A DNA stretch of 64,000 nt. Origin: Botryllus schlosseri (taxonomy: Eukaryota). Positions 12,723 through 55,500 of this stretch are shown in pieces (the first letter of the stretch is position 1; every line of letters begins with the position of its first letter). The DNA lies in NCBI GenBank assembly GCA_051294905.1, contig CM119371.1, positions 32,614,001 to 32,678,000 of the forward strand, given 5' to 3'. Made by a program: the position numbers and the translations under genes. Under the pieces are notes generated by a model. The model did no database searches. It saw only the letters and a list, made by a program, of their open reading frames with translations, and was not told the origin of the DNA.

Positions 12723-13114
12723 TAGGGTTACCATACGTCCTCTTTTGAGAAGATTTGTCCTCTTTTTTGAATCTTTTGAAAGTGTCCTCGGAGGACGCCC
12801 TTTTGTCCTTTTTTTGAGAATTTAGGTCATATTTACTGCAACATTCGACTGATATGTCGTAAATCAGCGCCGGAGTGGTGCTCCGGGTATTTCGGGAACT
12901 GGGCGGGTAGTTGACCTTTTTTGTTAGTCAATCACCTAACAATGTGGAGGAAAATCTGTATTTTGGGCGTTGAGCGAGTAAGTTGACTTTTTTTGGTCAA
13001 CCGACGTCAAAGTAGAAAAAATTCGCCATTTTTTGAGAATTCACCTCCGGATTTGCAAGTCTGAAAATTCTGAATAAGTGTCCTTTTCAGATTTTCAAAA
13101 ATGTTGTAACGCTA
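12723..13114. mobile_element. hAT MITE (TAGGGTTACCATACGTCCTC family)
   Basis: Left TIR TAGGGTTACCA, decayed right end TGTAACGCTA. TSD TGGTATAC / TGTTATAC. GTCCTC repeats. Same family as 21208 and 52082. Confidence 0.8.
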
Positions 13115-13797
13115 TGTTATACCCATTTTATTATAACACTGTTTGGTGATATCGAATGGTTCGCATTTATAAAATACTAATTTTCCTCAATTTTGGCCGT
13201 TTCTGCTCGCATTTTCAAGTACCAAACCAATAGATGAAATCCCGACAGTATGGTCACTTCACTATTTTTCGAAATTGCGATGAAATGACGGTCTTGGTCG
13301 CAGGGTTGTAATGACTCGAGTCATGACTCGACTCGAGTCAGACTCGAGTCACGATTTTTTTATGACTCGACTTGACTCGAGTCAATTTCTTGAAATGGGA
13401 AAATGACTCGACTCGACTTGTACTCGAGTCATTACGCATGACTCGACCCAAGTCATTGACTCGGCTTATTTTATATGACTTGAAGATGAAGAAATTTGCG
13501 AATCATAATGGCTAGATCAACGCATCCGACGAATTCTGCCGACATCGCTATTTGTCACCACTGCTTTCTTCGCACTTGTCTCATATCAGATATGCCGCCG
13601 TAAAAACAACAGAAAATGTACATAGTAGCAATGCATTGTACAAAATCGTCCAGTGATGAAGAGGTAATAGATCCTCCGCAATTAAAGTACTCAAGACTTT
13701 TCAATTATACAAGCAAGCAATTGAATCAAAATTCAATTAGAGCCAATGAAATGACTCAGATGGTGAAGAGACTGATAAGCTCATGTGTAGATTTGAA

Positions 13798-14016
13798 GGC
13801 GATGATTCTTTGCATTTTTGGGCGACTAGAAAGAATGAGTATTGAATGCTATTCAGTGTGGTTCAAAAATGCTTGTCAATTCCTGCATCAAGTTCTAGTG
13901 CACTAGTGGAACGTGTATTCAGTATATGTGGATTCATTTTATGGCCATGCCGCTTTAACATATTTGAGGATCTCCTTTCCACATTAGTATTTTTGAGGTG
14001 TAACTCATTGATTTGA
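13798..14016 (+). pseudogene. hAT (Ac/ZBED-like) transposase dimerisation domain remnant
   Basis: Manual translation: DSLHFWATRKNEY*MLFSVVQKCLSIPASSSSALVERVFSICGFILWPCRFNIFEDLLSTLVFLRCNSLI*. Matches the FW...IPA.S...ERVFS..G motif. Confidence 0.88.
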
Positions 14017-14126
14017 TCTGCTGTCTGTGAAAACACACAATGCCCCTCGTCCATTTGACGTTTTGTTAGGTATGTGCATTGTGCACGTGAGTAATAATGA
14101 ATGGCTAATGTTATGTGAAGTTTGTA

Positions 14127-14617
14127 CAATATGGCTGTTCTAAAATAACTTCTTTTTTTATTTTACTGGGTGGTTACTTGATAAAATTGTTATGTTGCAT
14201 AGAAGGAACACTGAATCTGGCTTAATTTGAAAAAAGTGGAATCAATGATGTAAGAGGAGAATATTTTGGATTTGAAAATAAATGGAGTATTTTAGTGAGA
14301 AATTATTTCATATAATATAATTACATAGTAGTAAGCCGACTATTTTTTCATATCCAAAACATTCTAATCTAATAACTTCACTTTTTCTAGTTGGAATGGA
14401 GTCAAATTTGCTATGAATCATATTTTTACACAATGTAACAATATCATGAGATAGCCGGTAAAATTCGAAAATATCTATTTGAAATTAGTCTAAAATTTTC
14501 TTTCATAGCATTGCTTTCTACTGGTTGGAATTGAGCCAAATTTGATTTTTTAGGCAATCTAGCAATTTTAAGAAGTAGCCGGAAAATTTGAAAAAATGTT
14601 TTTGAACAGCCCCATTG
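14127..14617. mobile_element. TA-flanked foldback MITE (Tc1/mariner-like ends)
   Basis: TA|CAATATGGCTGTTCTAAAA ... TTTTGAACAGCCCCATTG|TA, with internal inverted arms. Related to 11581-12180. Confidence 0.6.
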
Positions 14618-16409
14618 TACAATCATTTCTCCAATGCTGTAACTGCGATGTAGTCTGTAATGCACTTTAGTATAATCAAAAGGTATCTGTTCTGTTGTCA
14701 CTGCACAATGTACATAGTTGCATGCACGCTTTTACAGCATGCTGGCCTGTTGTAAATACCTCTACATAAACATGCATCTATTGATTCTCTATCAACTAGT
14801 ATCTTGACGTGAATTTGTTGGTTCTCTATCAGATAGTATGTAGACGTGAATTCGTTGGCTCTCTATCAGCTATTCGTGAGCTATCGTCGCTGTGCTCATA
14901 ATAAAAACTGAATGCTTGTATTGGTGATGTATCAGACTGACAAGAGAGATATTTGATTTTAAGGTCTAAGATTAGTAAAGTTATCTTTAGCATCGGTAAA
15001 TGAGGCCAGGACCTGTCCGTTATCTGCCTAAATAAACACGTGTCAAGACTCTGGGCAAAATGAGCATGTTTCGCAAACAAGGAATTCGATATCACCCAAG
15101 CAGGATTGAAAACATGAGTTGAACATGACTTCAATACTGTGACTTGGACTCGACTCGAGTCATAACACCATGACTCGGACTTGACCCCTTAAACGGTGAC
15201 TTGGACTCGGACTCGAGTCTGTGATGAATTGAAAATGACTCGACTCGAGTCAATACCACAAAAGTATGATTGATTCGTGACTCGGAACCATGTGACTTGG
15301 TTACATCCCTGCTTGGTCGTCTGAGTCTCGATTCATATGACTCGGTTCGAGTCATGAACCGTATTTTGAGAAAATGACCCGAGTCGAGTCATCAGAAAGT
15401 TGTGACTGGAGTCGGATTCGAGTCATTATAGAACCCTTGTATGAACCCGTGCTCGATGGTTGTTATAGCAACCAGGGTTGAAATGACTCGAGTAAAGACT
15501 CGACTCGAGTCGAGTCATGTTTTCAAAATACGGAAATGACTCGACTCGAGTCAATCTGTGTATTGACTCCACTTGGACTTCATTTCGCATGACTCGAGCC
15601 AAGTCATATGACTTGAGAATCAGACGACCAAGACCGACATTTCATTGTAATTTCGAAGAATATTAAAGTCACCGCACTATTGGGATTTCATCTATTGGTA
15701 CTGGTACTTGAAAATGCGACCAAAAACTGTGTGAAAAGTTAGTATATTATAAATGCGAACCGGAATCGCCTATGCGTAACAAAAACAAATTTCTTTAGTG
15801 AGGAACACTGACTCCCAAGTTTTATTTCTTTGTGGAGCTCATCATTTTCTTCTGCTGTTCGCATATGTACTGTGAAGCTAAAATTGATCGAATGAAGTCT
15901 TATTGAATCACGCAGGGCGCGAAGAAAATTTCGAGATTACTGAATCTCTTAAAGAATTTAGGAGTAAAATCGTGAAGCCCATTTGCAGGTCCACTGCCGT
16001 CAACACATAGTAATTGAATCACATGTCAACGGCCGTATAAATATACTTCTACGGACGCAGGTTGGCCACCCCTTGCAATATAGGGATAGCATATTTTGAG
16101 ACCCAAAATCAGGCACTCATTACAAATTCGAAATTTATTATATTGGACGCGAATACGGGTAATTTGAAAACCTATATAGAAAATCCTGTTGTGTTGCCCT
16201 AAAAAAGTTATGTTGCCATCTCCACTCCTGCAAAACCATCGAAGTAGCTCGCAACTCGTAAGTTTAAACAAACTTCGCTAAGTTGCGACCGTACGAGTTC
16301 ATGACCTTCAGCAGTAGAATAAATGCAAAGTCGTATTTCTTTGTAGCTGCATAGTCGTAACGGTAATTTGGATGAAATTTTATTGTTATTGACGGCTTAC
16401 CAGCAAAAA

Positions 16410-16442
<33 letters not shown>

Positions 16443-16752
16443 CCATAGCCATAGATGTCAATAGTTTCTCAGTGCTTAGTGCTCAGAATTTCACATCCCT
16501 TGGTGGATTTGAGGGGATTTCGGTATTCTGGCATAGTCAATATTTGGACTTACGGAATCAGTGCGTCGATAGCATTTGATTGATGCTAGTTATTATAAAT
16601 TATCAGCTGTCAATGATGAATTACATTATCGAGGTGAGGCACGACTGGCAATTATCTTATACTTGTCCAGACGACAGGTGAGGTATTGCCTCACTCCCCT
16701 TCCTGACTGCACGTCACTGAAATGATCCCTCCGCAGTACCATGCTTATTGCT

Positions 16753-18534
16753 TAGGGCCGTAACAGTACGTCGTCAGCCCCCCTCAAAACGGTGGTTTCG
16801 GGCCTCCATACGATGATATACCGAACTGCTGGGGTGCTTCTCCCCCCAGACCCCTCAGGCTGCACGCTGTTTACCGCTACTTATAATCTACATTGGAGGC
16901 CGTTTACTGAAGCAGCATTTCTGGCGTTAATTTCTATTATTCATGAATGAATCGGTCCATAAGATCGGGAGTTGCATGTATATTGTTATTGCAATCAATT
17001 TCTTGTCCTCTCTGCTCACGTAATCAGATTTACCGGTAGAGCTAACTGAGGTGTCTTGGATAGGCTACTGTATGGCCCGTTGGTATGACTCCGTAGCATG
17101 ATGTTATTTCATGACCTCCTGTCTGCTATATCAAAAAAAAAAATAGAATCGCCCAAACGTAGGCTATTAAACTAAAAAACGCACACGATTTTAAATCGGT
17201 ATTCCTTCACTGGCATATAATTTTTCCCTGCGTGATGGTATATGTCTTGTGAGGTTCAGATTGCCGAGACAAGAACATTCGGCAGCCGTCATTTAGGCGC
17301 CTATGGACAATAAAACCTATATGTGCATATGTGCATATAACGAAGTTTTCGGTCAGCATAAGGGCAGTCCTTTTCGGCCAAGGTTTTCTCGCTGCCGATC
17401 GTTCTGGCACACTTCTTGGAGTCGCATGTTACATGGCGTAAAACACTGGTTCTCAATTTTTTGTCTTCGCGGACCCCTTTTGGACCACCACGGACCTCGC
17501 AGACCCCCTCAAGTTTTCGTTCAAAATTAGCTCGATTATCGCGCAACCGCCATCTGTCTCGTGCAGATACTGATTGTAGGCTATTGATAAACAGCAACAA
17601 AATGGCTTTTCTTGAAAATAGCATCACAGTATATGTAAAAATTGGGTAGACTTTTATTATATAGTAACGAATTTTGCAGCTGTATTTATTGTCTTGAAAA
17701 TCCGTGACTTCGATTGGATACGAACGAGTGCCAAAAATCCATTTTCACACATATATATTGGTGGCGAATGTAATATTAACGCGTAACGCTTTCGACGACA
17801 GATTTTTGTTGTGAGTTTTTAATAAAAAGTTCACGTCCAGCCTGGTCGTTTTTATTTATGATCTCAGCTTGAAGTTATTTAGTGGTTATATCACAGGAGT
17901 AAATGGATTTCTTAGAGAGTTTTCAATTACTTCATTGGGACAGATTAGGAAAAAATAAGGAATTTATATTTAAACGACTGTTTGATAATTTGCTGAGACT
18001 GACAACTCCAAATCCAAAGTGCTACCTCTAACATTTCATTTTTCCACAGACCCCAACAAAACATCTCTAAACAGTAGGATGTGTCATCTCAGAAGACCAT
18101 TTCAATGATGTGAGTCCTAAACTTTTAGCAATTATGAAGCGAAACCGTCATGCCTTTCCTAACTGAAAAAATAGGTTATCAATCTCATTACAAATTTAGA
18201 GGCTTCGCGGACCCCCTGAAAACGCTTCGTGGACTCCCGGTTGAGGACCACTGACCAAAAACTTTATATGTCTTGGTGCATCGTGGCGTGGTAATGGCCA
18301 ACACCGATATGCCCATTTCAATAAATCTTGCGTATTTTTTCGTGGGGGAAGAGTACCCCAAAATCAAGATATTTGGCAACTTGAAATCGCGCCCAGCGTG
18401 AATAATTTTTGAAAATGTTGCATAAATTTTCAAAAAATACTCTATAATTTATGGTAATTCATGAAATAATTTAGGGCCCCCTTCGAGCTCGCCCCTCCAA
18501 TTGGGGGGTTTGAAGAGCGGCAGTTACGGTCGTG
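16753..18534. mobile_element. composite hAT element (CAGGACCGTAAC family), unit-1 copy
   Basis: Paralog of 43424-47207 with damaged ends (TAGGGCCGTAAC / GTTACGGTCGTG), followed by CTTATATA. Confidence 0.75.
17444..18253. mobile_element. nested hAT MITE (CAGTGGTTCTCAAC / GCGGACCCC family)
   Basis: Ends CACTGGTTCTCAA / TTGAGGACCACTG. Paralog of 46156-46976. Empty site at about 1700. Confidence 0.8.
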
Positions 18535-19261
18535 CTTATATAATAATGGATATTATTAATATTAATAAATAATGCATATATATTAATGCAAGGGGCATAT
18601 ACCGTAAGTCAATCCATACTTGTTTCAATGTGGAACATAGGTTCGTTTTGCAGACGGGTCCACGAAAAGTATTTTATCTTTGAAACCGCTCCGCAGAGCT
18701 AAAATGGTTGCCGATCTACTTCCTTAATACACACTTTATTTATAGGGTTGTGTTCTGTGCATCCTTCAACTATTTGAAATCCTTTTATATCTGAAAACTC
18801 CTCAAATTATGAATGACTTTTTTAGACAGACACATATTGAGTAAGCACATGCATTGCAGCTTTGCACCAAAGCCACCCATGGCATGTATAATTTTACTAT
18901 GTCTTAAATTAGAACTTTTATGAGTAAGTTTCTGTGACTTCATTCTACACTCAGCTCACATAAGTGTTCTTGAGATGGTCTATCCACAGTATCTGAATCT
19001 CAAAAACTTCAGATATTCAATACTAAACCAGCTAACAGAACACAGATCTGTACAAATATCAGTAATAATCAGTCACGTTACAAGAACTGCTGCTGAGACT
19101 TTATTAAGCGTCTAACCGTCGAAGCGGCTAGATGGGAAAGACACAGGAACAACACAAGACATCACTACTATAACAGGGAGTGGTATAGAGCACGGCTGCC
19201 ACATATCGACTGCAATTGTACATGTGAATATCCCTATGCATTTTATGAAACGTCAATGAAT

Positions 19262-20434
19262 TTACGTCAGGAAATATTGGAGAACAAAATCCAATAATTG
19301 GACAGAGATGAAAAAAAAAACGTTTTTCAGATACTTGAATGTAATACATATTAATGAGTTTACGCTTGGAGTAACCCTTCGCAGTATATGCTCTCTCCCA
19401 TACATTTCATCCAAGTTGTTGATGCCAGTATGCACATTCATATGTCGCCGGAGGTGATTCTTCTGATTAAACGCTCTCCTGCATAAATCACATTTATGAT
19501 TTTTGATGCCTGCATGTATGTACATATGAAGCTTGAGGTGACCCTTTTGAGAAAATGCTTTTCCACATACAGCACATCCATAATCTTTGATACCAGCATG
19601 CATATTCATATGTTGCTTGAGGTCCAGTTTATGAGTAAATTCTTTTCCACATACATCACATTTATGTCTTTTGATGCCAGCATGCATATCCATATGACGT
19701 TTGATGTGACCATCCTGAGTAAGTGCTTTTCCACATACATCACATTTATATTTTTTGATGCCAGCGTGCATATTCATATGTCTCCTGAGGCCATCCTTCT
19801 CAGTAAATGCTTTCCCACATACATCGCATTCATGATTTTTGATGCCAGCATGCATATCCATATGACGTTTGATGTGATCATCCCGAGTAAATGCTTTTCC
19901 ACATACATCACATTTATATTTTTTGATGTCAGCGTGCATATTCATATGTTTCCTGAGGCCACCCTTCCCAGAAAAGGCTTTCCCACATACATCACATTCA
20001 TGATTTTTGATGCCGGCATGCATATCCATATGACATTTGATGTCACCATACTGAGTAAATGATTTTCCACACACATCACATACATGATCTTTGATGCCAG
20101 CATGTATATGCATATGTTTACTGAGGACATGTTTCTGGGTAAATGCTTTCCCACATATATCACATTCATGTCTTTTGACGCCAGCGTGCATATCCATATG
20201 AGACTTGAGGTAGCTCTTCAGATGAAATGATTTCCCACATATACCACATTCATGACTTTTGATGCCAACATGCATATTCATATGTCGCTTGAGGTTATTC
20301 TTCATTGTAAATGCTCTCCCACATACATCACATATATGAGTTTTGGTGTACGCGTTTTGCGAGAACTCTTCTCTGGCAACATCGCATGGATGATCTTTCA
20401 AGTCGTGATGAATAGATAATTTCTCTGACTCCAT
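19262..20434 (-). CDS. tandem C2H2 zinc-finger protein, 11 fingers (ZF-1)
   Basis: 390-aa ORF with 11 CxxC-x12-HxxxH units at 28-aa spacing. ATG is in GACATGG context with an in-frame stop 13 codons upstream. Upstream exons cannot be excluded. Confidence 0.9.
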   Translation of the reverse strand: MESEKLSIHHDLKDHPCDVAREEFSQNAYTKTHICDVCGRAFTMKNNLKRHMNMHVGIKSHECGICGKSFHLKSYLKSHMDMHAGVKRHECDICGKAFTQKHVLSKHMHIHAGIKDHVCDVCGKSFTQYGDIKCHMDMHAGIKNHECDVCGKAFSGKGGLRKHMNMHADIKKYKCDVCGKAFTRDDHIKRHMDMHAGIKNHECDVCGKAFTEKDGLRRHMNMHAGIKKYKCDVCGKALTQDGHIKRHMDMHAGIKRHKCDVCGKEFTHKLDLKQHMNMHAGIKDYGCAVCGKAFSQKGHLKLHMYIHAGIKNHKCDLCRRAFNQKNHLRRHMNVHTGINNLDEMYGREHILRRVTPSVNSLICITFKYLKNVFFFISVQLLDFVLQYFLT

Positions 20435-21207
20435 GTCGCCCTTGTTATGGAAATGACCGTACGATGGTGTTTATTTATTACAGTGGAATATCTGTTTTCA
20501 AGTTCAAAGTGGTTATTACATATTTTCAACAATTTCTTCAGTGTATATACCAGTAAGCTAGTTCTTTGACGGTATGGCACTGTCTGATAAATATGAAACT
20601 ATGAAAGTGTCGAACTAATCTTAACAAAGAGCAGCATTAGACTGTCATTGTCATACTATTATATCATGCAATAAAAATATGATCACGTATTTAAACAATT
20701 TGATCGGAATTAGTCAAATAGCATCAATGCGATCATCATTTTGATCACTTCTGAATAATTAAAACTATAGACAGATAATACCACTATGAAAAACTATTGA
20801 CAAAACATCCTCAATTTACAACAAATCACCGATCAACTGGCAAAGCAACATAGAGCTTTGTGGTAAAGGTGCATATATATCTGCTGGTGAAGAGAACGTA
20901 TGGCTCATTTTTGGACACGAAATGGCCTCGTAGTTGAATCTTCAATCTCGCACTTAATTCTCGTCTTGGTTATAAATATCGCTGTAACGATTTGGTGGAT
21001 TTCATAATGGCCTGAATCATTATTCTTGTGGTACCTGAGACAAGTGTATGTGAGGTTACCTTAACATACAAAATATAGACGTATGCAAGTTAAACTCAGA
21101 TGTCACTACTAAGATTTTTATTAAAGTCATTTCGACACCATCGGATTTTCGAAAGGCACAATGGCACTCCGATGTAATCCGGTTTTGACAAAAATATGTA
21201 TATATTA

Positions 21208-21630
21208 TAGGCTTACCATACGTCCTCTTTTAAGAGGATTTGTCCTCGTTTTTGGCTCTTTTGAAAGTGTCCTCGGAGGACGCCCTTTTGTCCTCTTTTT
21301 TGAGATTTTGTCCTCTTTTTTGAAAATTTAGGTCAGATTTAGAGCAAATTGCGAGTGATATGCCGCAAATTAGCACAGAAGTGAAGCTCCGGCGGGTATT
21401 TCAGGTCTGAGCGAAAAGATGACCTTTTTTTTTTAGTCATCCACCTGGCAATGCGGAGAGAAAAACGGTATTTTTAGCTCTGAGCGGAAATAATAACCTT
21501 TTTTTTAGTCAACCGATCACAAAGTGGGAAAAATTAACCGGTTTTTCAGAATTCTACTCCGGTTTTGCTGCAAGTTGCAAATTTCTGAAAAAGTGTCCTC
21601 TTTTTAGATTTCCAAAATATGGTAAGCCTA
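21208..21630. mobile_element. hAT MITE (TAGGCTTACCATA family) upstream of ZF-1
   Basis: TIRs TAGGCTTACCATA / TATGGTAAGCCTA. TSD ATATATTA / AAATATTA. Confidence 0.88.
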
Positions 21631-22593
21631 AAATATTATCCCTCAGGTATCACACACTTACACTATCATAACATTCGGGAAATATTAGTCTTAAATTAGA
21701 ATTACGTTTATGATTCACAATGAGCAGACTATGGGACTTCTACAACGACAGGCCTGTAAAGTAGGCTACAAGATGTAAAATGGCAAATGATGAAAACACC
21801 GACTTGAAAACATCTATGTCACAAACGACATGGATATTGAAAAAAAAAATTTGACTTTGTAAACAATTTTTACACTTTTTTGTCCTAAAGCAACAATTAT
21901 TACAATATTTTTACTTTTTTTGCGAAGTTAAAAAAAAACCTTGTCTTTAACCATGGAAAATCGCGCTTCGTTATAAGAATTTTTTGCGTCGTGACATTCA
22001 AAAGATATTAAATAGATGTTACAAGAGCGCTCTGGTGTCGTCGCGACCCAAAATTGTACCATTCGTGTCCCATACTTCAAGAACTCCTGTCCTGCAGTCA
22101 TAGTCATGTTTAAAGCGTGGTAATAACCGCTGCCCCTAGGCCGATTTACCTAAAATATACGCATTTGCTCGTAGTAATCATATTAAAATCTGGTCCTGTG
22201 AAGACATGTACTCGCCGCAAGCGCGACGGAGATTTTCAAGTTGAATAGATCTCCAACAAACGACCAACGTAATATTTTAGGCCCCTTCTATCTCTCCAGA
22301 AATGGGGGTTTGGGGTGCAGCAGCTATGACCCTGGTAGATCGTCTTCAGGGGCGTCAAACATACGGCCCACGGGCCGATTCCGTCATACCAGGCCATTTT
22401 ATGCGGAAGCAATTATGAGTGAATTCTTGTATTATCCAGCACGTTTACAACAAATGTTGTTCACAGAAGCCAAAAAGCCAACGCTAGACCGTCTTGACAT
22501 AAACCCAAATTGCGATTTAATACTAATGAGCATGATTTCAATATCTGCGTTTATAGTCAAACTTGAAACGAAATGGAGCATAGAAATATGCAA

Positions 22594-22761
22594 AACTACT
22601 TACTTACTTGAGTAGATTTAAAGCCAGCAAATTCTACTTCTACTTCAAGTAGTTCTAGGTTGCTTATGTAAGAAGTACTTCTACTTGCACTTGAGTAGAT
22701 TTTTGCATCGCTACTTCTACTTCTACTTGAGTAGTTTTCTTGACTACTTTGACCACCTCTG
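22594..22761 (+). mobile_element. isolated right end of CAGAGGTGGTCA-family hAT element
   Basis: Matches 49228-49395, including TACTT repeats and terminal TGACCACCTCTG. Confidence 0.8.
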
Positions 22762-23604
22762 TATATACTACAGCTTCAGCCCAATAAGATCACACAACGT
22801 ATAGTGTCATTGTTAAGCTTTATATATTTGTATTCACTGATGGTGGATCCGTACTGAAACGTTTAATTCGCTCAACACTTGCATAAGCGCCTTTGCTTTC
22901 TCTCGATGAAAACACGACATGTAGGCTTCAGCCGTTTCGTTCACAATGAAGCAGTCATGCTGTAAAAGCTTCTGTGAAGCAGGTGTTGTTTGTTCATCAT
23001 CTATTTCGTACCTCAACATGTCCTGAATTAATCTTAAATCATCACCTGCCAACCTACTAACAATGCGCACTCAGAATCCCCGCCGGTAGCAGACTTCTTG
23101 AACACCTGATCAGCAAGCTGCTGCTGCCGTGGTCATTGAAGCATAGCCGATTTGCCAATCAAGAGCCGTGGTTATTTGATTACTAGTCTTCTCTCCGTTC
23201 TATGGTCAGTGACACGCCCATTCTTGAACAGCTACTTTCAAACGCTTTGACCGAAATCTTAACGGCTTTCCTGTAAGCTTCTTTCAGGCTAATTGTTGTT
23301 TTTCATCAATAATCTATAGAATGAGAAACAATCACGAAGACTTTCTGAGATTTTCCAAATTTTAGACAACCCTACCGTCCGCGGCCGCACAAATTTCCCT
23401 TTACGGCCGCAGGTTGGCCACTCCTGGCCTAAGCTATAGTAGCCAATTTGCTGCACATCGGAACAAAATATTGCTTAGTATCTTCTTTTTGTAAAACAAA
23501 TTCCGGTTGGTTTGTGCAAATGAAATATATTTTCCAAATAAAGTACGAATAGAACTGAAAAATGTTGAAAAGCACTGGCCTAAACTATAGCATTTCACCA
23601 AATA

Positions 23605-27669: not shown

Positions 27670-28464
27670 TTGCACAGTTCCTTTGTCTGGATAACATACA
27701 TGTTGAAGTATAAATTCAAGTGTAGTAATGCATTTAATACCCGGACATAGAACTAGACAATATGGCATCTTTACGGTCCACCATATTTTTTTATTAACGT
27801 TTACTAATCGCGCACCGTGTTTACACCGTATCTTATACAATTTCTCCTTATTGCTATCCCACTAAACTACGGACCTTATAATATGGGGATGGCATCATAC
27901 CATGCTATTTTCTAAAACGTGCTGCTCGAGAAAACAAAGGATAAGTAGCCGATCGCATTTCCATATAAATCCTATCATTTCCATCCCATGATGTGAAAGA
28001 ATGCTTATGCTATCGCAAATTGGATACCTGCTGGTATGCATCAATTTGAATCAAGCTCGTCACCTTTCGCAGCTTTACACGATTTTGCAATACATGTGAA
28101 CGAATTAGGATCGTTTTCACAACTACTTACTTACTTGAGTACTTTTAAAGTCAGTCAATTCTACTTTTACTTCAAATAATTTTAGAGTGCTTATGGAAGA
28201 AGTACTTCTACTCGTACTTGAGTAGATTTTTCCGTCTCTACTTCTGCATGACTTAGAAAGCCGTAAAGGCTATAACTGCACTTCCTTGTCCAGCGGCATA
28301 TGCACATCATGCACTCATGGTATGCATATTCGCAGATCGTCTGTATGTGTATCATGAGTCGGTGTATATGCCGCAAAAACATCAAGGACAAAACATGAAC
28401 TACGTCCTTTCCTTTCCTTCTGCGTCTACTTGAGTAGCTTTCTTGATTACTATGACCACCTCTG
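27670..28464 (+). mobile_element. right part of CAGAGGTGGTCA-family hAT element
   Basis: Homologous to 48795-49395 and ends TGACCACCTCTG. Interrupted at about 28245-28425 by sequence matching the reverse complement of 58350-58522. Confidence 0.78.
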
Positions 28465-48112: not shown

Positions 48113-49395
48113 CAGAGGTGGTCAGTAACGAAGTACTTCTACTTTTTAGAGGTACTCAAGTAGTTTACCTCTACTTCTGGTACTTACTCAAGTAGATCTG
48201 AATTTCGCTACTTCCACTTCTACTTCGTATTTTTTTGTGATCTACTTACTTACTTTTCGCTATTTTCAGTTTGTCAAGTAGAAGTAGTTTAATCCTTCCT
48301 CCAGGAAGATAGCCGGAGGAATTTCGGGGCTGTTTTGACGGAGTATCAACATTTATTTATCATAAAAGTTGAGTAAAACCCAGAATTTTCGTCGCGCTTC
48401 GCGCTCAGTGGATACGGAGTAGCCAGTATGATTACACGAAAGTATCGGTGAATATAATTTGGGTAGCGGGTTGGCGTGGTTCCGTTCACAGCGCATTGTC
48501 GCCCTTTGCCCATATGGAATAATTCACCACAGTATGTATGGCTCATCATAACGTTTGAAACTGATGCTTCGCAATCTAGCATATACTTATCATATCGTAA
48601 TCCAGCAGTCCATGGCCTGTCATATAATCTGGAAAGTGAACTCAGACTTTTTTTAGTTTTAGAGCTGTTTTAGCATACCACCTTTGAAACTTTCTGTCTT
48701 TAGATATGAAATACATATTCCGCTTTTAGAAGTAGTATTTACATTTCACTTTCAATTCCCAGTATCATATACTTTCATCTCTAATAATATCAGTTCTTTT
48801 GTCTCGATAACATACATGATGAAGGATAAAGAAAGTGTAGTAATGCCTTTAATTTCCGGAAATAAAGCAACACAATATGGCATTTTCACCATATTTATTA
48901 TTCACGTTTTATAATCGCGCAAAGTGCTCACACCGTATCCTATACAACTTCTCCTTATTTCTCTTCGACTGCACCACGGGCCTTATAATATGGGGGAGGG
49001 CGCCATACCATGATATTTTCTAAAACGGGCTGTTCGATTAAACATAGGATTAGTATCGCATTTCCATATCAATATTATCATTTTTATCCCATGATGCGGA
49101 CGTATGCATATGCTGTCGAAAATTGAATACCTCCTGGTATATATCAATATGAATCAAGCTCGGCACCTTTCACATTGATCAATTTGCACCTTTTTCATCC
49201 ATGTGAACGAATTACGATCGTTTTCACAACTACTTACTTACTTGAGTAGATTTAAAGTCAGTCAATTTTACTTCTACTTCAAGAAGTTTTAGGTTGCTTA
49301 TGGAAAAAGTACTTCTACTCGTACTTGAGTAGATTTTTTCGTCGCTACTTCCACTTCTACTTGAGAAGCTTTCTTGACTACTTTGACCACCTCTG
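48113..49395. mobile_element. non-autonomous hAT element (1283 bp) inserted in ZF-2 finger 22
   Basis: TIRs CAGAGGTGGTCA / TGACCACCTCTG. Perfect TSD TTCATATG (48105-48112, 49396-49403). Empty site in ZF-1 at 19436-19443. Confidence 0.95.
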
Positions 49396-49772
49396 TTCAT
49401 ATGTCGCCGGATGTGATTCTTCTGATTAAACGCTCTCCTGCATAAATCACATTTATGATTTTTGATGCCAGCATGTATGTAAATATGAAGCTTGCGGTGA
49501 CCCTTCTGAGAAAATCATTTTCCACATACATCACATTCATAATTTTTTACAGCAGCATGCATATCCATACGGATCTTGAGCTCACGCTTTCCGAAAATTG
49601 GTTTACCACATATATCACATTCTCATTTTGTGACGCGTGCGTGCCTATCCATATGAGGCTTGAGTCGACTAAATGCTTTTCCATATACATCGCATTCATG
49701 ACGATTGATGCATACATGTTTTTTCATATGTAGCATGAGGCTATTCTTGTGAGTTAATTCTCCCCCACATAC
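49396..49772 (-). pseudogene. dead C2H2 fingers 18-22 of ZF-2, downstream of a premature stop
   Basis: In-frame continuation: C*VCGGELTHKNSLMLHMKKH..HECDVYGKAFSRLKPHMDRH..*ECDICGKP..YECDVCGK*FSQKGHRKLHIYIH..HKCDLCRRAFNQKNHIRRHMN. Resumes after the hAT element at 48104. Confidence 0.9.
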
Positions 49773-51308
49773 TTAACATTTATGTTTTTTGATGACAGCA
49801 TGTATCTTCATGTGAAGACGGAGGTTATTCTTCTGGGAGAATACCTGGCCACATATATCACGTTTACCACTTTTTCTTCCATCATGAGTATCCATATGAC
49901 GACTAAGGTCACGCTTCTGAGTAAATACTTTCCCACATACATCGCATTGATGATTTTTGGTGCCGGAATGCATCTCCATATGAAGCTTTAGCACATTCTT
50001 CCTAATGAATGGTTTACCACAAACATCACATTCATGTTTTCTGACACCAGCATGCATATCCATATGATAATTGAGGACAGGTTTATGAGTAAATGTTTTC
50101 CCACATACATCACATCGATGATTTTTGATGCCAGCATGTATAACCATATGATTTCTGAGGTAATTTTTACGAGAAAATGCTTTACCACATAAATCACATT
50201 CATTATTTTTGATGCTTGAATGCATCTCCATATGAAGCTTTTGCTCATATTTCGTGATAAACGGTTTACCACAAACATCACATTCATGTTTTTTGACACC
50301 AGCATGCATATCCATATGACGCTTGAGGCTCTGTTTCCGAGTAAATGCTTTCCCACATACATCACATTCGTGGTTTTTGATGCCAGCATGCATATCCATA
50401 TGAAGCTTGAGGTCACCCTTCCGAGTAAATGCTTTCCCACATACAGCACATCCATAATCTTTGATACCAGCATGCATATTCATATGTTGCTTGAGGTCCA
50501 GTTTATTAGTAAATGCTTTTCCACATACATCACATTTATGTCTTTTAATGCCAGCATGCATATCCATATGACGTTTGATGTGACCATCCTGAGTAAGTGC
50601 TTTTCCACATACATCACATTTATATTTTTTGATGCCAGCGTGCATATTCATATGTCTCCTGAGGCCATCCTTCCCAGTAAATGCTTTCCCACATACATCG
50701 CATTCATGATTTTTGATGCCAGCATGCATATCCATATGACGTTTGATGTGATCATCCTGAGTAAATGCTTTTCCACATACATCACATTTATATTTTTTGA
50801 TGTCAGCGTGCATATTCATATGTTTCCTGAGGTCACCCTTCCCAGAAAAGGCTTTCCCACATACATCACATTCATGATTTTTGATGCCGGCATGCATATC
50901 CATATGACATTTGATGTCACCATACTGAGTAAATGCTTTTCCACATACATCACATACATGATCTTTGATGCCAGCATGTATATGCATATGTTTACTGAGG
51001 ACATGTTTCTGGGTAAATGCTTTCCCACATATATCACATTCATGTCTTTTGACGCCAGCGTGCATATCCATATGAGACTTGAGGTAGCTCTTCAGATGAA
51101 ATGATTTCCCACATATACGACATTCATGACTTTTGATGCCAACATGCATATTCATATGTCGCTTGAGGTTATTCTTCATTGTAAATGCTCTCCCACATAC
51201 ATCACATATATGAGTTTTGGTGTACGCGTTTTGAGAGAATTCTTTTTTGGCAACATCGCATGGATGATCATTCAAGTCGTGCGGAATAGATAATTTTTCT
51301 GACTCCAT
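49773..51308 (-). CDS. tandem C2H2 zinc-finger protein, 16 intact + 1 degenerate finger (ZF-2)
   Basis: 511-aa ORF with 28-aa C2H2 repeats. Terminated by TAA within finger 18. Paralog of 19262-20434. Confidence 0.9.
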   Translation of the reverse strand: MESEKLSIPHDLNDHPCDVAKKEFSQNAYTKTHICDVCGRAFTMKNNLKRHMNMHVGIKSHECRICGKSFHLKSYLKSHMDMHAGVKRHECDICGKAFTQKHVLSKHMHIHAGIKDHVCDVCGKAFTQYGDIKCHMDMHAGIKNHECDVCGKAFSGKGDLRKHMNMHADIKKYKCDVCGKAFTQDDHIKRHMDMHAGIKNHECDVCGKAFTGKDGLRRHMNMHAGIKKYKCDVCGKALTQDGHIKRHMDMHAGIKRHKCDVCGKAFTNKLDLKQHMNMHAGIKDYGCAVCGKAFTRKGDLKLHMDMHAGIKNHECDVCGKAFTRKQSLKRHMDMHAGVKKHECDVCGKPFITKYEQKLHMEMHSSIKNNECDLCGKAFSRKNYLRNHMVIHAGIKNHRCDVCGKTFTHKPVLNYHMDMHAGVRKHECDVCGKPFIRKNVLKLHMEMHSGTKNHQCDVCGKVFTQKRDLSRHMDTHDGRKSGKRDICGQVFSQKNNLRLHMKIHAVIKKHKC

Positions 51309-52507: not shown

Positions 52508-55500
52508 ATATATTATCCCTCAGGTATCACACACTTACACTATCATAACATTCGGGAAATATTAGTCTTAAATTAGAATTACGTTTATGATTCACAATGA
52601 GCAGACTATGGGACTTCTACAACGACAGGCCTGTAAAGTAGGCTACAAGATGTAAAATGGCAAATGATGAAAACACCGACATTGAAAACATCTATGTCAC
52701 AAACGACATGGATATTGAAAAAAAAAAATTTGACTTTGTAAACAATTTTTACACTTTTTTGTCCTAAAGCAACAATTATTACAATATTTTTACTTTTTTT
52801 GCGATGTTAAAAAAAACCTTGTCTTTAACCATGGAAAATCGCGCTTCGTTATAAGAATTTTTTGCGTCGTGACATTCAAAAGATATTAAATAGATATTAC
52901 AAGAGCGCTCTGGTGTCGTCGCGACCCAAAATTGTACCATTCGTGTCCCATACTTCAAGAACTCCTGTCCTGCAGTCATAGTCATGTTTAAAGCGTGGTA
53001 ATAACCGCTGCCGGTAGGCCGATTTACCTAAAATATACGCATTTGCTCGTACTAATCATATTAAAATCTGGTCCTGTGAAGACATGTACTCGCCGCAAGC
53101 GCAACGGAGATTTTCAAGTTGAATAGATCTCCAACAAACGACCAACGTAATATTTTAGGCCCCTTCTATCTCTCCAGAAATGGGGGTTTGGGGTGCAGCA
53201 GCTATGACCCTGGTAGATCGTCTTCAGGGGCGACAAACATACGGCCCACGGGCCGATTCCGTCATACCAGGCCATTTTATGCGGAAGCAATTATGAGTGA
53301 ATTCTTGTATTATCCAGCACGTTTACAACAAATGTTGTTCACAGAAGCCAAAAAGCCAACGCTAGACCGTCTTGACATAAACCCAAATTGCGATTTAATA
53401 CTAATGAGCATGATTTAAATATCTGCGTTTATAGTCAAACTTGAAACGAAATGGAGCATAGAAATATGCAAAGTTATGTTGTCGTTAAAGCCACTATTTC
53501 ATTGGTTTATAACTGTATTCAGCCGGCACATTATGGCCGTCCGATCACTTCGCGAAACCCAATTATCCAATTCCCTCATCCACCACGTAGTTGGGGCGTT
53601 AGTTCCACCATGGTAAGGAATAATATAGCCATACTGTACCAGCTTCTTTAAACAATTTTTTGGTGAATGGGATAGGTCAACTACAGAGAAGTAGAGAAAT
53701 ATTTTTAATATGCGAGATGTACGACTGTACAGGTACACAGTATCTCCTGCACCTATTTAATTTTCAATGTCATACAATCAATTCATGTGCTTCTTAAATT
53801 GTGTGCAATGATTTCACGGCTGGACATTTTAACCTTACGCTTTTAGAAGTAGTAGGCTATTTATGTTTCATTTGCATTTCCCAGTATCATATTCTTTGAG
53901 TTATAATTAATGTCAGTTCTTTTGTCTGGATAACATACATGTTGAAGTATAAATGCAAGTGTAGTAATGCCTTTAATTTCCTAAAATAAAGCTACACAAT
54001 ATGGCATCTTTACGGTCCACAATATATTTTATTAACGTTTACTAATCGCGCACAGTGTTTACAGCGTATCTTATACAATTTCTCCGTATTGCTATCCGAC
54101 TAAATTACGGATCTTGTAATATGGGGATGGTGATATTGACGCGTCTGGAGTCATAGCTTGAATCGAGTACCATTTTCTGAATGACCTGACTTGAGTCACT
54201 CCACTGAAATAAATCGACTTGACTTGAGTTTGACGCATGCATATTATTAAATCATTCATGACTTGAGCGTGATTTTTTAAAAGTCTTTTAAGTCATCAAC
54301 TATTCTGCCTCGCAAAACCTCTCGATCAATAGGCATTCTATAATCCTTTATTCACTGGATTCGACTTCCGTTTACGTTTTGGATTTGTTAAGTTCGATCA
54401 GCATGCAGCGACATCTTATTTTCAGCATTCTCATTCCATTATACACATAGAAGAGTATATTACAGCAGACAAGATTCATTCAGACAACGAGTGACGTGTG
54501 TACTAACCTGGAAGAATCCATACCTGACTATCGAAACATCAACTTCTCAACCTCTCTCATATTGGATGACTTATGGTTAGCAATCAAAGTTACAAAATAT
54601 TCTAAAGACTAGTGAATTAGACAACGAGTACACGCCGCGCACAATATGTGCAATATTTTCAACACAGACCTGCACAAATTAGGCTACTGCATTTTCAATA
54701 AGCGCAGCTACAATTACTACTACAAATACTCAATTTTTGAAACTAGCAATTAGAACTAAATACAGAACTACTCACTTTTCAAACTACGCACTCATAACTA
54801 GAACTGGAACTAATTTTTTAAAGCCCGCAACTAGAACTAGATCTAGATCCAGCTAGAACTAACGACATTGCAAAATTAATACACCGCTGAATATATAGCA
54901 AAATTTTGACTTGACCCGCGAACCTATATTTACTGCTTCTTATTCTCTGAAAAATAATTTCATTTTACTAGGGGACACATTGATTTTTATTTTGTCGGAA
55001 ATACTATACACGGAATCGTCATTCCAAGAGGAAGTGTTTCGAGTTTGAAATGGGAGAGATTTCGACCCTCAAACCACACCCGCTGGCTACGCAACTGTCA
55101 ACAGTGATGGCTTTGAGCTATCAAACGGTGCATAAACATCATTCAACAGAACACCGGTATATCGAATCACGCAAAACGACAACACGCGCATTTTAGTTGT
55201 TTGGCAACTAATATTCTTCAAATGCGAAACTAGAACTAGAACTATAGAACTACTCACTTTTCAATATCCGCATTTAAAAATAGAACCACTCACTTTTCAA
55301 AATCCGAAAATAGAACTAGAACTAGAACTACTCCGTTTTTAAAATCTTCAACTGGAAATAGGACTTGAACTACTCAAAACACCGTTAGTTATAGTTGAAC
55401 GGCAACCAACTAAACGAGTAATGTGTACAAGCTTTTTTCAACAGTTTAACTATGACTTAACCCTCAAGAAATATAAAATAAATTAGTAGGGTATTTCAAC

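Follow-up and report, generated by a model that had tools for sequence, protein, structure and literature searches.

A poly-zinc-finger gene on the minus strand of a 64,000-nucleotide stretch of the Botryllus schlosseri genome (hereafter, the window) raises the question of how its finger order arose, given that one of its fingers appears to be composed of parts of two different fingers of a second gene in the same window. The gene in question, ZF-1 (19262-20434), encodes 390 aa with 11 canonical C2H2 fingers, and the second one, ZF-2 (49773-51308, also minus strand), encodes 511 aa with 16 canonical fingers and ends at a TAA in finger 18 (49773-49775). Both arrays consist of C-X2-C-X12-H-X3-H units in tandem (11 in ZF-1 and 16 in ZF-2), with 7-residue linkers and a period of 84 bp, and the units within the arrays show 73% matches to each other. 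C2H2 was the sole Pfam domain type found in the ZF-1 ORF (PF00096, E = 5.4e-58; PF13465, E = 1.7e-72). A Pfam search of the two ORFs, in which 19 and 24 families were matched, returned no match to KRAB, SCAN, or BTB, and none to SET or SSXRD. Judging from their family, the products of both genes are expected to bind DNA in a sequence-specific manner.

ZF-1 belongs to a cluster of C2H2 poly-zinc-finger genes arranged in tandem and is a recombinant among them. Ten finger arrays lie within the 294 kb examined, inside nested segmental duplications, and a search of the species' own genome revealed many further paralogs. One cluster member, ZF-3 (G000:C1:32556368-32558280), is a near-identical twin of ZF-2 that carries identical stops. 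A protein search with ZF-1 residues 250-345 (fingers 9-11) gave 38 matches among 49 candidates, the best of which reached 48% identity, and neither an allele nor an orthologue was among them; searched by exact match only, neither ORF was found in the protein collection.

Our comparison of the two arrays confirmed that the finger fusion is real in the assembly. Fingers 1-9 of ZF-1 match fingers 1-9 of ZF-2 at 82-84 of 84 nt each, at an offset of +30874, and ZF-1 finger 11 (19415-19498) matches ZF-2 finger 22 at 82/84 nt, at an offset of +29959. The step between the two offsets is 915 bp, i.e., 11 x 84 - 9, where the 9 bp correspond to a deletion in ZF-2 finger 19. As the difference between these two diagonals, the ZF-2 stretch with no ZF-1 counterpart runs from the middle of finger 10 to the early part of finger 21 (approx. 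49531-50445, minus strand). The initial annotation had described finger 10 of ZF-1 as a chimera of fingers 10 and 21, followed by finger 22, with eleven units missing in register, and the offsets agree with it on all of these points.

The change of partner takes place inside ZF-1 finger 10 (19499-19582, minus strand; YGCAVCGKAFSQKGHLKLHMYIHAGIKN), whose first strand and first Cys are of the ZF-2 finger 10 type (YGCAVCGKAFTRKGDLKLHMDMH) and whose helix, both His residues, and linker are those of finger 21 (YECDVCGK*FSQKGHRKLHIYIH). The best match of nt 1-30 is ZF-2 finger 10 (29/30), and that of nt 31-84 is ZF-2 finger 21 (50/54), followed by finger 10 (45/54), which upholds the earlier attribution of the helix to finger 21. 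When a single switch was fitted to fingers 9-11, the best position gave a Fisher p of 2.6e-12 over 59 informative sites, and none of 300 shuffles reached this value. The grouping of the two halves had been set beforehand as a check, and it came out as predicted in trees that comprised 104 and 113 finger pieces, taken from six cluster genes (ZF-3, A2, A3, E, F, H, and others were left out): no base separates the preceding linker and nt 1-20 from ZF-2 finger 10, and nt 31-84 group with finger 21 of ZF-2 (97/76) inside a clade of penultimate fingers (95/92), where the support values are rough since the columns are few and the bootstrap is unsettled. Taken together, the breakpoints occupy an equal position in two units, the frame is kept, and the junction sits within sequence common to the two units, as in a repeat-mediated in-register deletion.

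The junction lies within 19553-19571 (minus strand), most parsimoniously within 19563-19571. The last base specific to finger 10 is 19572, and finger-21-type bases are found at 19562 and 19552, the former being weak alone because GGA and GGG at its codon vary among fingers (28 and 89 of 149). Between 19571 and 19563 (in ZF-1 coordinates), no base differs between ZF-2 fingers 10 and 21. In fact, only two bases (19578 and 19572) link the N-terminal part of the fusion finger to finger 10, and therefore the original assignment of the N-half YGCAVCGKAF to that finger rests on YGCA, VCGKAF not being diagnostic; moreover, the GCA codon credited earlier to finger 10 is also the penultimate-finger codon in paralogs A, B, and D. 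We also considered whether the fusion finger has a new helix specificity and rejected this idea, as its residues at what we take to be helix positions -1, 2, 3, and 6 (Q, G, H, and L) are those of finger 21. From the sequence, the novelty is one of finger order, and the recognition helix is entirely that of finger 21.

Which of the two arrangements is the older one can be read from the paralogs. The finger 20-21 adjacency of ZF-2 is common to the more distant paralogs D and E, and the ZF-2 finger-10 helix matches finger 8 of D at 52/54 nt. With both adjacencies of ZF-2 being the older state, it is ZF-1 that is derived, and the reverse event, an insertion of 11 fingers into ZF-2, was rejected because the outgroups share both adjacencies. 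Together with the in-register offsets, this polarity sustains the proposal that recombination between 84-bp units gave rise to a new open finger order.

The source of the 3' part has to be viewed differently from the initial annotation, which had taken the dead finger 21 of ZF-2 as the donor. At codons 9, 16, and 20 of finger 21, ZF-1 carries GCA, Leu, and ATG, as do most outgroup paralogs, and ZF-2 and ZF-3 carry TGA, CGC, and ATT; the damage to ZF-2 finger 21 (49458-49541, minus strand), i.e., the TGA at 49515-49517, Leu to Arg, and Met to Ile, is thus specific to ZF-2 and ZF-3. Finger 22 of ZF-2 is interrupted by a 1283-bp insertion (48113-49395) with 12-bp terminal inverted repeats and an 8-bp target duplication, presumably a hAT-like non-autonomous element given the length of that duplication. 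It is also found in ZF-3, and the corresponding site in ZF-1 finger 11 (19437-19444, minus strand) is empty. Given the outgroup-like codons and the empty site, today's ZF-2 was not the 3' donor, and we infer that the 3' part of ZF-1 came from a sister copy, also of the ZF-2 lineage, in which finger 21 was intact. No such copy of the ZF-1 3' side was found in the assembly among the best 40 of 7620 candidates scored, where the next-best matches had 95% identity over 415 bases or 89-93% over longer stretches. Elsewhere in the window, pieces related to the 1283-bp transposon occur at 22591-22762, 27675-28244, and 53835-54130.

These same observations bear on a crossover in or between today's damaged ZF-2-type copies, placed just past the finger-21 stop such that all three stops were skipped. 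The best statistical split against the present ZF-2 does fall at 19557/19552, directly after the TGA codon of ZF-2, and the last fingers of ZF-1 and ZF-2 pair in the tree. This apparent split arises, however, because the TGA is a change in ZF-2 and ZF-3 only. In addition, such a crossover would call for a reversion of Leu to Arg and of Met to Ile, an exact loss of the 1.29-kb insertion, and a reversion of derived 3' UTR bases of ZF-2 and ZF-3 (e.g., 19410, 19335, 19331, and 19330). The outgroup codons largely refute a crossover into the damaged ZF-2 finger, and we consider it very improbable.

An assembly artefact must also be weighed, be it that finger repeats were collapsed or misjoined or that the phase switched between haplotypes, since some copies in the cluster are nearly indistinguishable (10 of 1913 bases set ZF-2 apart from ZF-3). 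To this end, four of 24 listed sequencing runs (X1, X5, X23, and X21; none of the listed runs is on record as RNA, and X5 is RNA by our guess) were compared over 18400-22700. Among the 16 pieces listed (9402 more lie beyond these), none bridges the ZF-1 junction, and the joints listed within the array, with 20-25 bases on either side, resemble other finger genes. A contig from X5 aligns to 19314-19510 with no substitution and one gap (an extra base), so the insertion-free last finger is present in another sample. The extra base relates to the C-terminal tail of ZF-1 (19262-19414, minus strand; ~50 aa), which is read through owing to a 1-bp deletion at 19415/19416; in ZF-2 without its insertion, a stop occurs three codons beyond HTGINN. 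Since the missing base is present in the other nine aligned copies as well as in the X5 contig, the deletion is either a private allele or an assembly error, and in the latter case it would speak for an artefact.

Several features point the other way. ZF-1 departs from both ZF-2 and ZF-3 at bases to either side of the junction (19633, 19641, and 19673 on one side; 19547 and 19511 on the other), no other assembled copy among the best 40 of 7620 candidates matches the ZF-1 3' side, the contig measures 41.8 Mb with no N in the 294 kb examined, and a misjoin would require units with differences at ~12 of 84 bases to have been linked within ~1 kb. The ZF-1-specific bases around the junction and the unmatched 3' side in particular render an artefact unlikely, and we assign it the smallest chance of the explanations considered here.

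The run X1 adds a further aspect. One of its contigs is identical to ZF-1 over 18483-18706 (224/224), where ZF-2 differs at 20 positions, and at all 16 of the 5' variants checked (the repeat 21248-21783 and position 22669 were left out, and 50 further entries lie beyond these), X1 has the ZF-2 letter; ZF-1 as assembled may therefore be a polymorphic haplotype. As for expression, a sequence motif that forms a candidate polyadenylation signal (AATAAA, minus strand) is located at 19100-19105, and single-cell reads stack above it at 19120-19407. These reads mostly have the letters of paralogs: at two ZF-1-private sites, the paralog letter is seen in 40/47 and 15/15 single-cell reads.

We then asked whether the two halves of ZF-1 have the same history. 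The 5' tract (19563-22594, minus strand), which comprises the start of finger 10, fingers 1-9, the leader, and upstream DNA, is ~98.5% identical to ZF-2, with 45 differences in 3023 aligned bases (19563-22590), and it stops abruptly at 22591 with the end of a transposon from the same family as the insertion in ZF-2 finger 22. The 3' tract (19141-19562, minus strand) differs at 16 of 421 positions from ZF-2, and equally from ZF-3, versus 28 of 2151 in the 5' non-coding part (3.8% vs 1.3% divergence from ZF-2; Fisher p 0.0013, or 0.0055 without the two TGA bases), and its probable source is a sister copy in the ZF-2 lineage that had diverged further. The distal 3' flank (12911-17950) belongs to a different paralog lineage, that of gene A (G000:C1:32524762): windows across 16941-18040 show 0-7 differences per 100 from A vs 2-17 from ZF-2, and the block assigned to the gene A lineage (12911-19035) has 95.8% identity. 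Such mosaic flanks show repeated exchange between paralogs. Gene A itself displays three clean within-finger switches, in finger 3 (C3 to C13), finger 9 (B17 to B20), and finger 10 (B21 to B18), so within-finger fusions are common in the cluster.

The alignments thus show the junction, its polarity, and the unequal divergence of the two ZF-1 halves, and the account that we lean toward, if only moderately, is that one out-of-register exchange linked a 5' part of ZF-2 type with the 3' end of a sister copy. We postulate that the homology of two 84-bp finger units allowed an unequal crossover or a template switch, whereby a ZF-2-type 5' part reaching to about nt 11-30 of finger 10 would have been fused to the final two fingers and the 3' UTR of the sister copy. 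Each unit spans a whole number of codons, so neither the reading frame nor the Cys2-His2 spacing was disturbed. Finger 21 of the donor would have been undamaged and probably lay behind the older stop of finger 20. The product would be a shorter array in which fingers 1-9 are followed by the conserved last two helices of the family. For C2H2 proteins, a shorter array with a changed finger order means that the binding site would differ at one end.

An identical mosaic would be obtained, albeit with lower probability in our view, by an older deletion within one gene copy, through replication slippage or an intrachromatid exchange involving fingers 10 and 21, if that copy was then as far from ZF-2 as the 3' end is now and its 5' part was replaced by recent ZF-2-type sequence through a later conversion or crossover. 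This order of events would fit the flanking of the 98.5% tract by more diverged DNA on both sides, as well as the uneven divergence within the tract (8/96 in the leader vs 9/756 in fingers 1-9). It would also agree with the 2 synonymous and 0 replacement changes in the two donor-type fingers of ZF-1 (the counterparts of fingers 21-22), as if these had been translated since the split, although the numbers are tiny. Against this, two events are needed instead of one, and the refreshed tract must extend close to the junction, where finger 9 matches at 82/84 and nt 1-20 of finger 10 are identical. The chemistry would be shared with the single exchange that we favor, in that the homology of the 84-bp units keeps the frame.

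Whether the fusion brought silent fingers back into a protein depends on the stops. The TGA in finger 20 of ZF-2 (49623-49625, minus strand) recurs in ZF-3 as well as in paralogs D and E, which are more distant, so that all four copies with this tail have it, and the last finger of ZF-1 pairs with that of ZF-2 in the tree (98/74). By parsimony, fingers 21-22 were thus probably untranslated in the donor, and the fusion probably returned these two fingers to the frame, with the proviso that this parsimony operates amid the visible mosaicism of the cluster. The TAA in finger 18 and the deletion of 9 bp are confined to ZF-2 and ZF-3. The earlier proposal that the crossover bypassed stop-containing fingers therefore probably applies to one old stop, that of finger 20, and does not amount to a rescue of the gene: ZF-2 is open through 16 canonical fingers, so six intact fingers (11-16) were lost. 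For a similar reason, we rejected the label of a resurrected pseudogene, as both ZF-2 and ZF-3 are open through 16 canonical fingers and only the last fingers lie behind a stop. Within fingers 21-22, the common branch of ZF-2 and ZF-3 has 3 damaged codons and 0 synonymous changes, and the pattern seen in ZF-1 would fit its translation, albeit on tiny counts. A tentative proposal, which we hold to be rather doubtful, is that in-register recombination gave back to a protein two fingers left in the 3' UTR behind an old stop, and that selection has maintained them since. If it is true, decayed array tails would serve as a store of spare DNA-binding modules for an invertebrate family that evolves fast, is still polymorphic, and has no recognized effector domain; if stop-parked fingers are recycled and then selected, dead tails would gain a role, and the cluster would be a small natural test of how finger register affects DNA binding.

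The finger fusion is a real and ordinary route of change, known for poly-zinc-finger genes. Excerpts from published work describe whole-finger deletion and duplication as the commonest source of differences in finger count among poly-ZF paralogs (PMC2604467), and, for primate orthologues, name altered finger number as the domain change seen most often, internal multi-finger deletions included; in chimpanzee ZNF780B, five internal fingers are deleted, and such deletions are predicted to shift the DNA register (PMC3126818). Like the genes described there, the ZF cluster consists of tandem C2H2 arrays in clustered paralogs, whereas the return of fingers from behind a stop is not described in the available excerpts of these two sources (PMC2604467; PMC3126818). 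One narrow literature search likewise found no account of fingers restored in this way. The KRAB-ZNF genes differ from the ZF-1 and ZF-2 ORFs in the domains (KRAB, SCAN, and BTB) for which the latter gave no match. Poly-ZF and KRAB-ZNF genes have TGEKP-like linkers, unlike the HAGIKN-like linker of the ZF cluster.

The closest parallel for a splice within a finger is PRDM9, in which, according to excerpts of PMC8600002, new fingers come from template switching and variants are spliced between finger midpoints. As in ZF-1, the splice points are internal and in register, often with two parental copies; in contrast, the units of ZF-1 and ZF-2, at 73% matches, are far more different from each other than the minisatellite fingers of PRDM9, and the ZF-1 exchange took place among cluster paralogs. 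PRDM9 also has PR/SET, KRAB, and SSXRD, which the ZF-1 and ZF-2 ORFs are without, and an identity of the genes as PRDM9 or KRAB-ZNF was rejected by domain content. Lineage-specific ZNF expansions of metazoans, as partly described in PMC10547256, comprise large clustered C2H2 families with changed base-contacting residues. The ZF cluster resembles them in being clustered and lineage-specific, the best outside match of fingers 9-11 having 48% identity, and differs from them in that the Pfam search recognized no N-terminal effector domain in the ZF-1 and ZF-2 ORFs (PMC10547256). With a mechanism already documented in mammals and in PRDM9, the value of the locus lies in offering a mappable case of finger-order change beside two near-identical uncut relatives, ZF-2 and ZF-3.

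Several further observations were made on the genes and their surroundings. The 32-residue leader of ZF-1 (20339-20434) resembles a decayed finger, and its divergence from ZF-2 (8 of 96 bases) is far above that of the fingers. In fingers 1-9 (19583-20338 in ZF-1 and 50457-51212 in ZF-2), 7 of the 9 base differences are residue-changing, and 4 of these 7 replacements are found at positions that we take to be helix -1 (fingers 6, 7, and 9) or +3 (finger 5), which hints, in small numbers, at selection on DNA contact. ZF-2 and ZF-3, together with a second gene pair, are carried by a recent segmental duplication (G000:C1:32540012-32583821 vs 32648556-32697139) of mostly 98-99.6% identity at an offset of ~107-113 kb. 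Paralog E adjoins a 6.56-kb inverted repeat (G000:C1:32714908-32721469 vs 32722387-32728948) with 99.9% identity and a spacer of ~0.9 kb. Gene A, a 13-finger gene, exists in three near-identical copies (G000:C1:32524762, 33376440, and 33404365); it has a ten-unit deletion relative to gene C, and its last two fingers are repeated internally. Finally, the site at 19030-19035 is possibly an insertion hot spot: ZF-3 and genes A, A2, A3, and B carry insertions at the matching 3' position, the one in ZF-3 being unlike those of A, A2, A3, and B in sequence, and ZF-1, ZF-2, D, and E are free of them.
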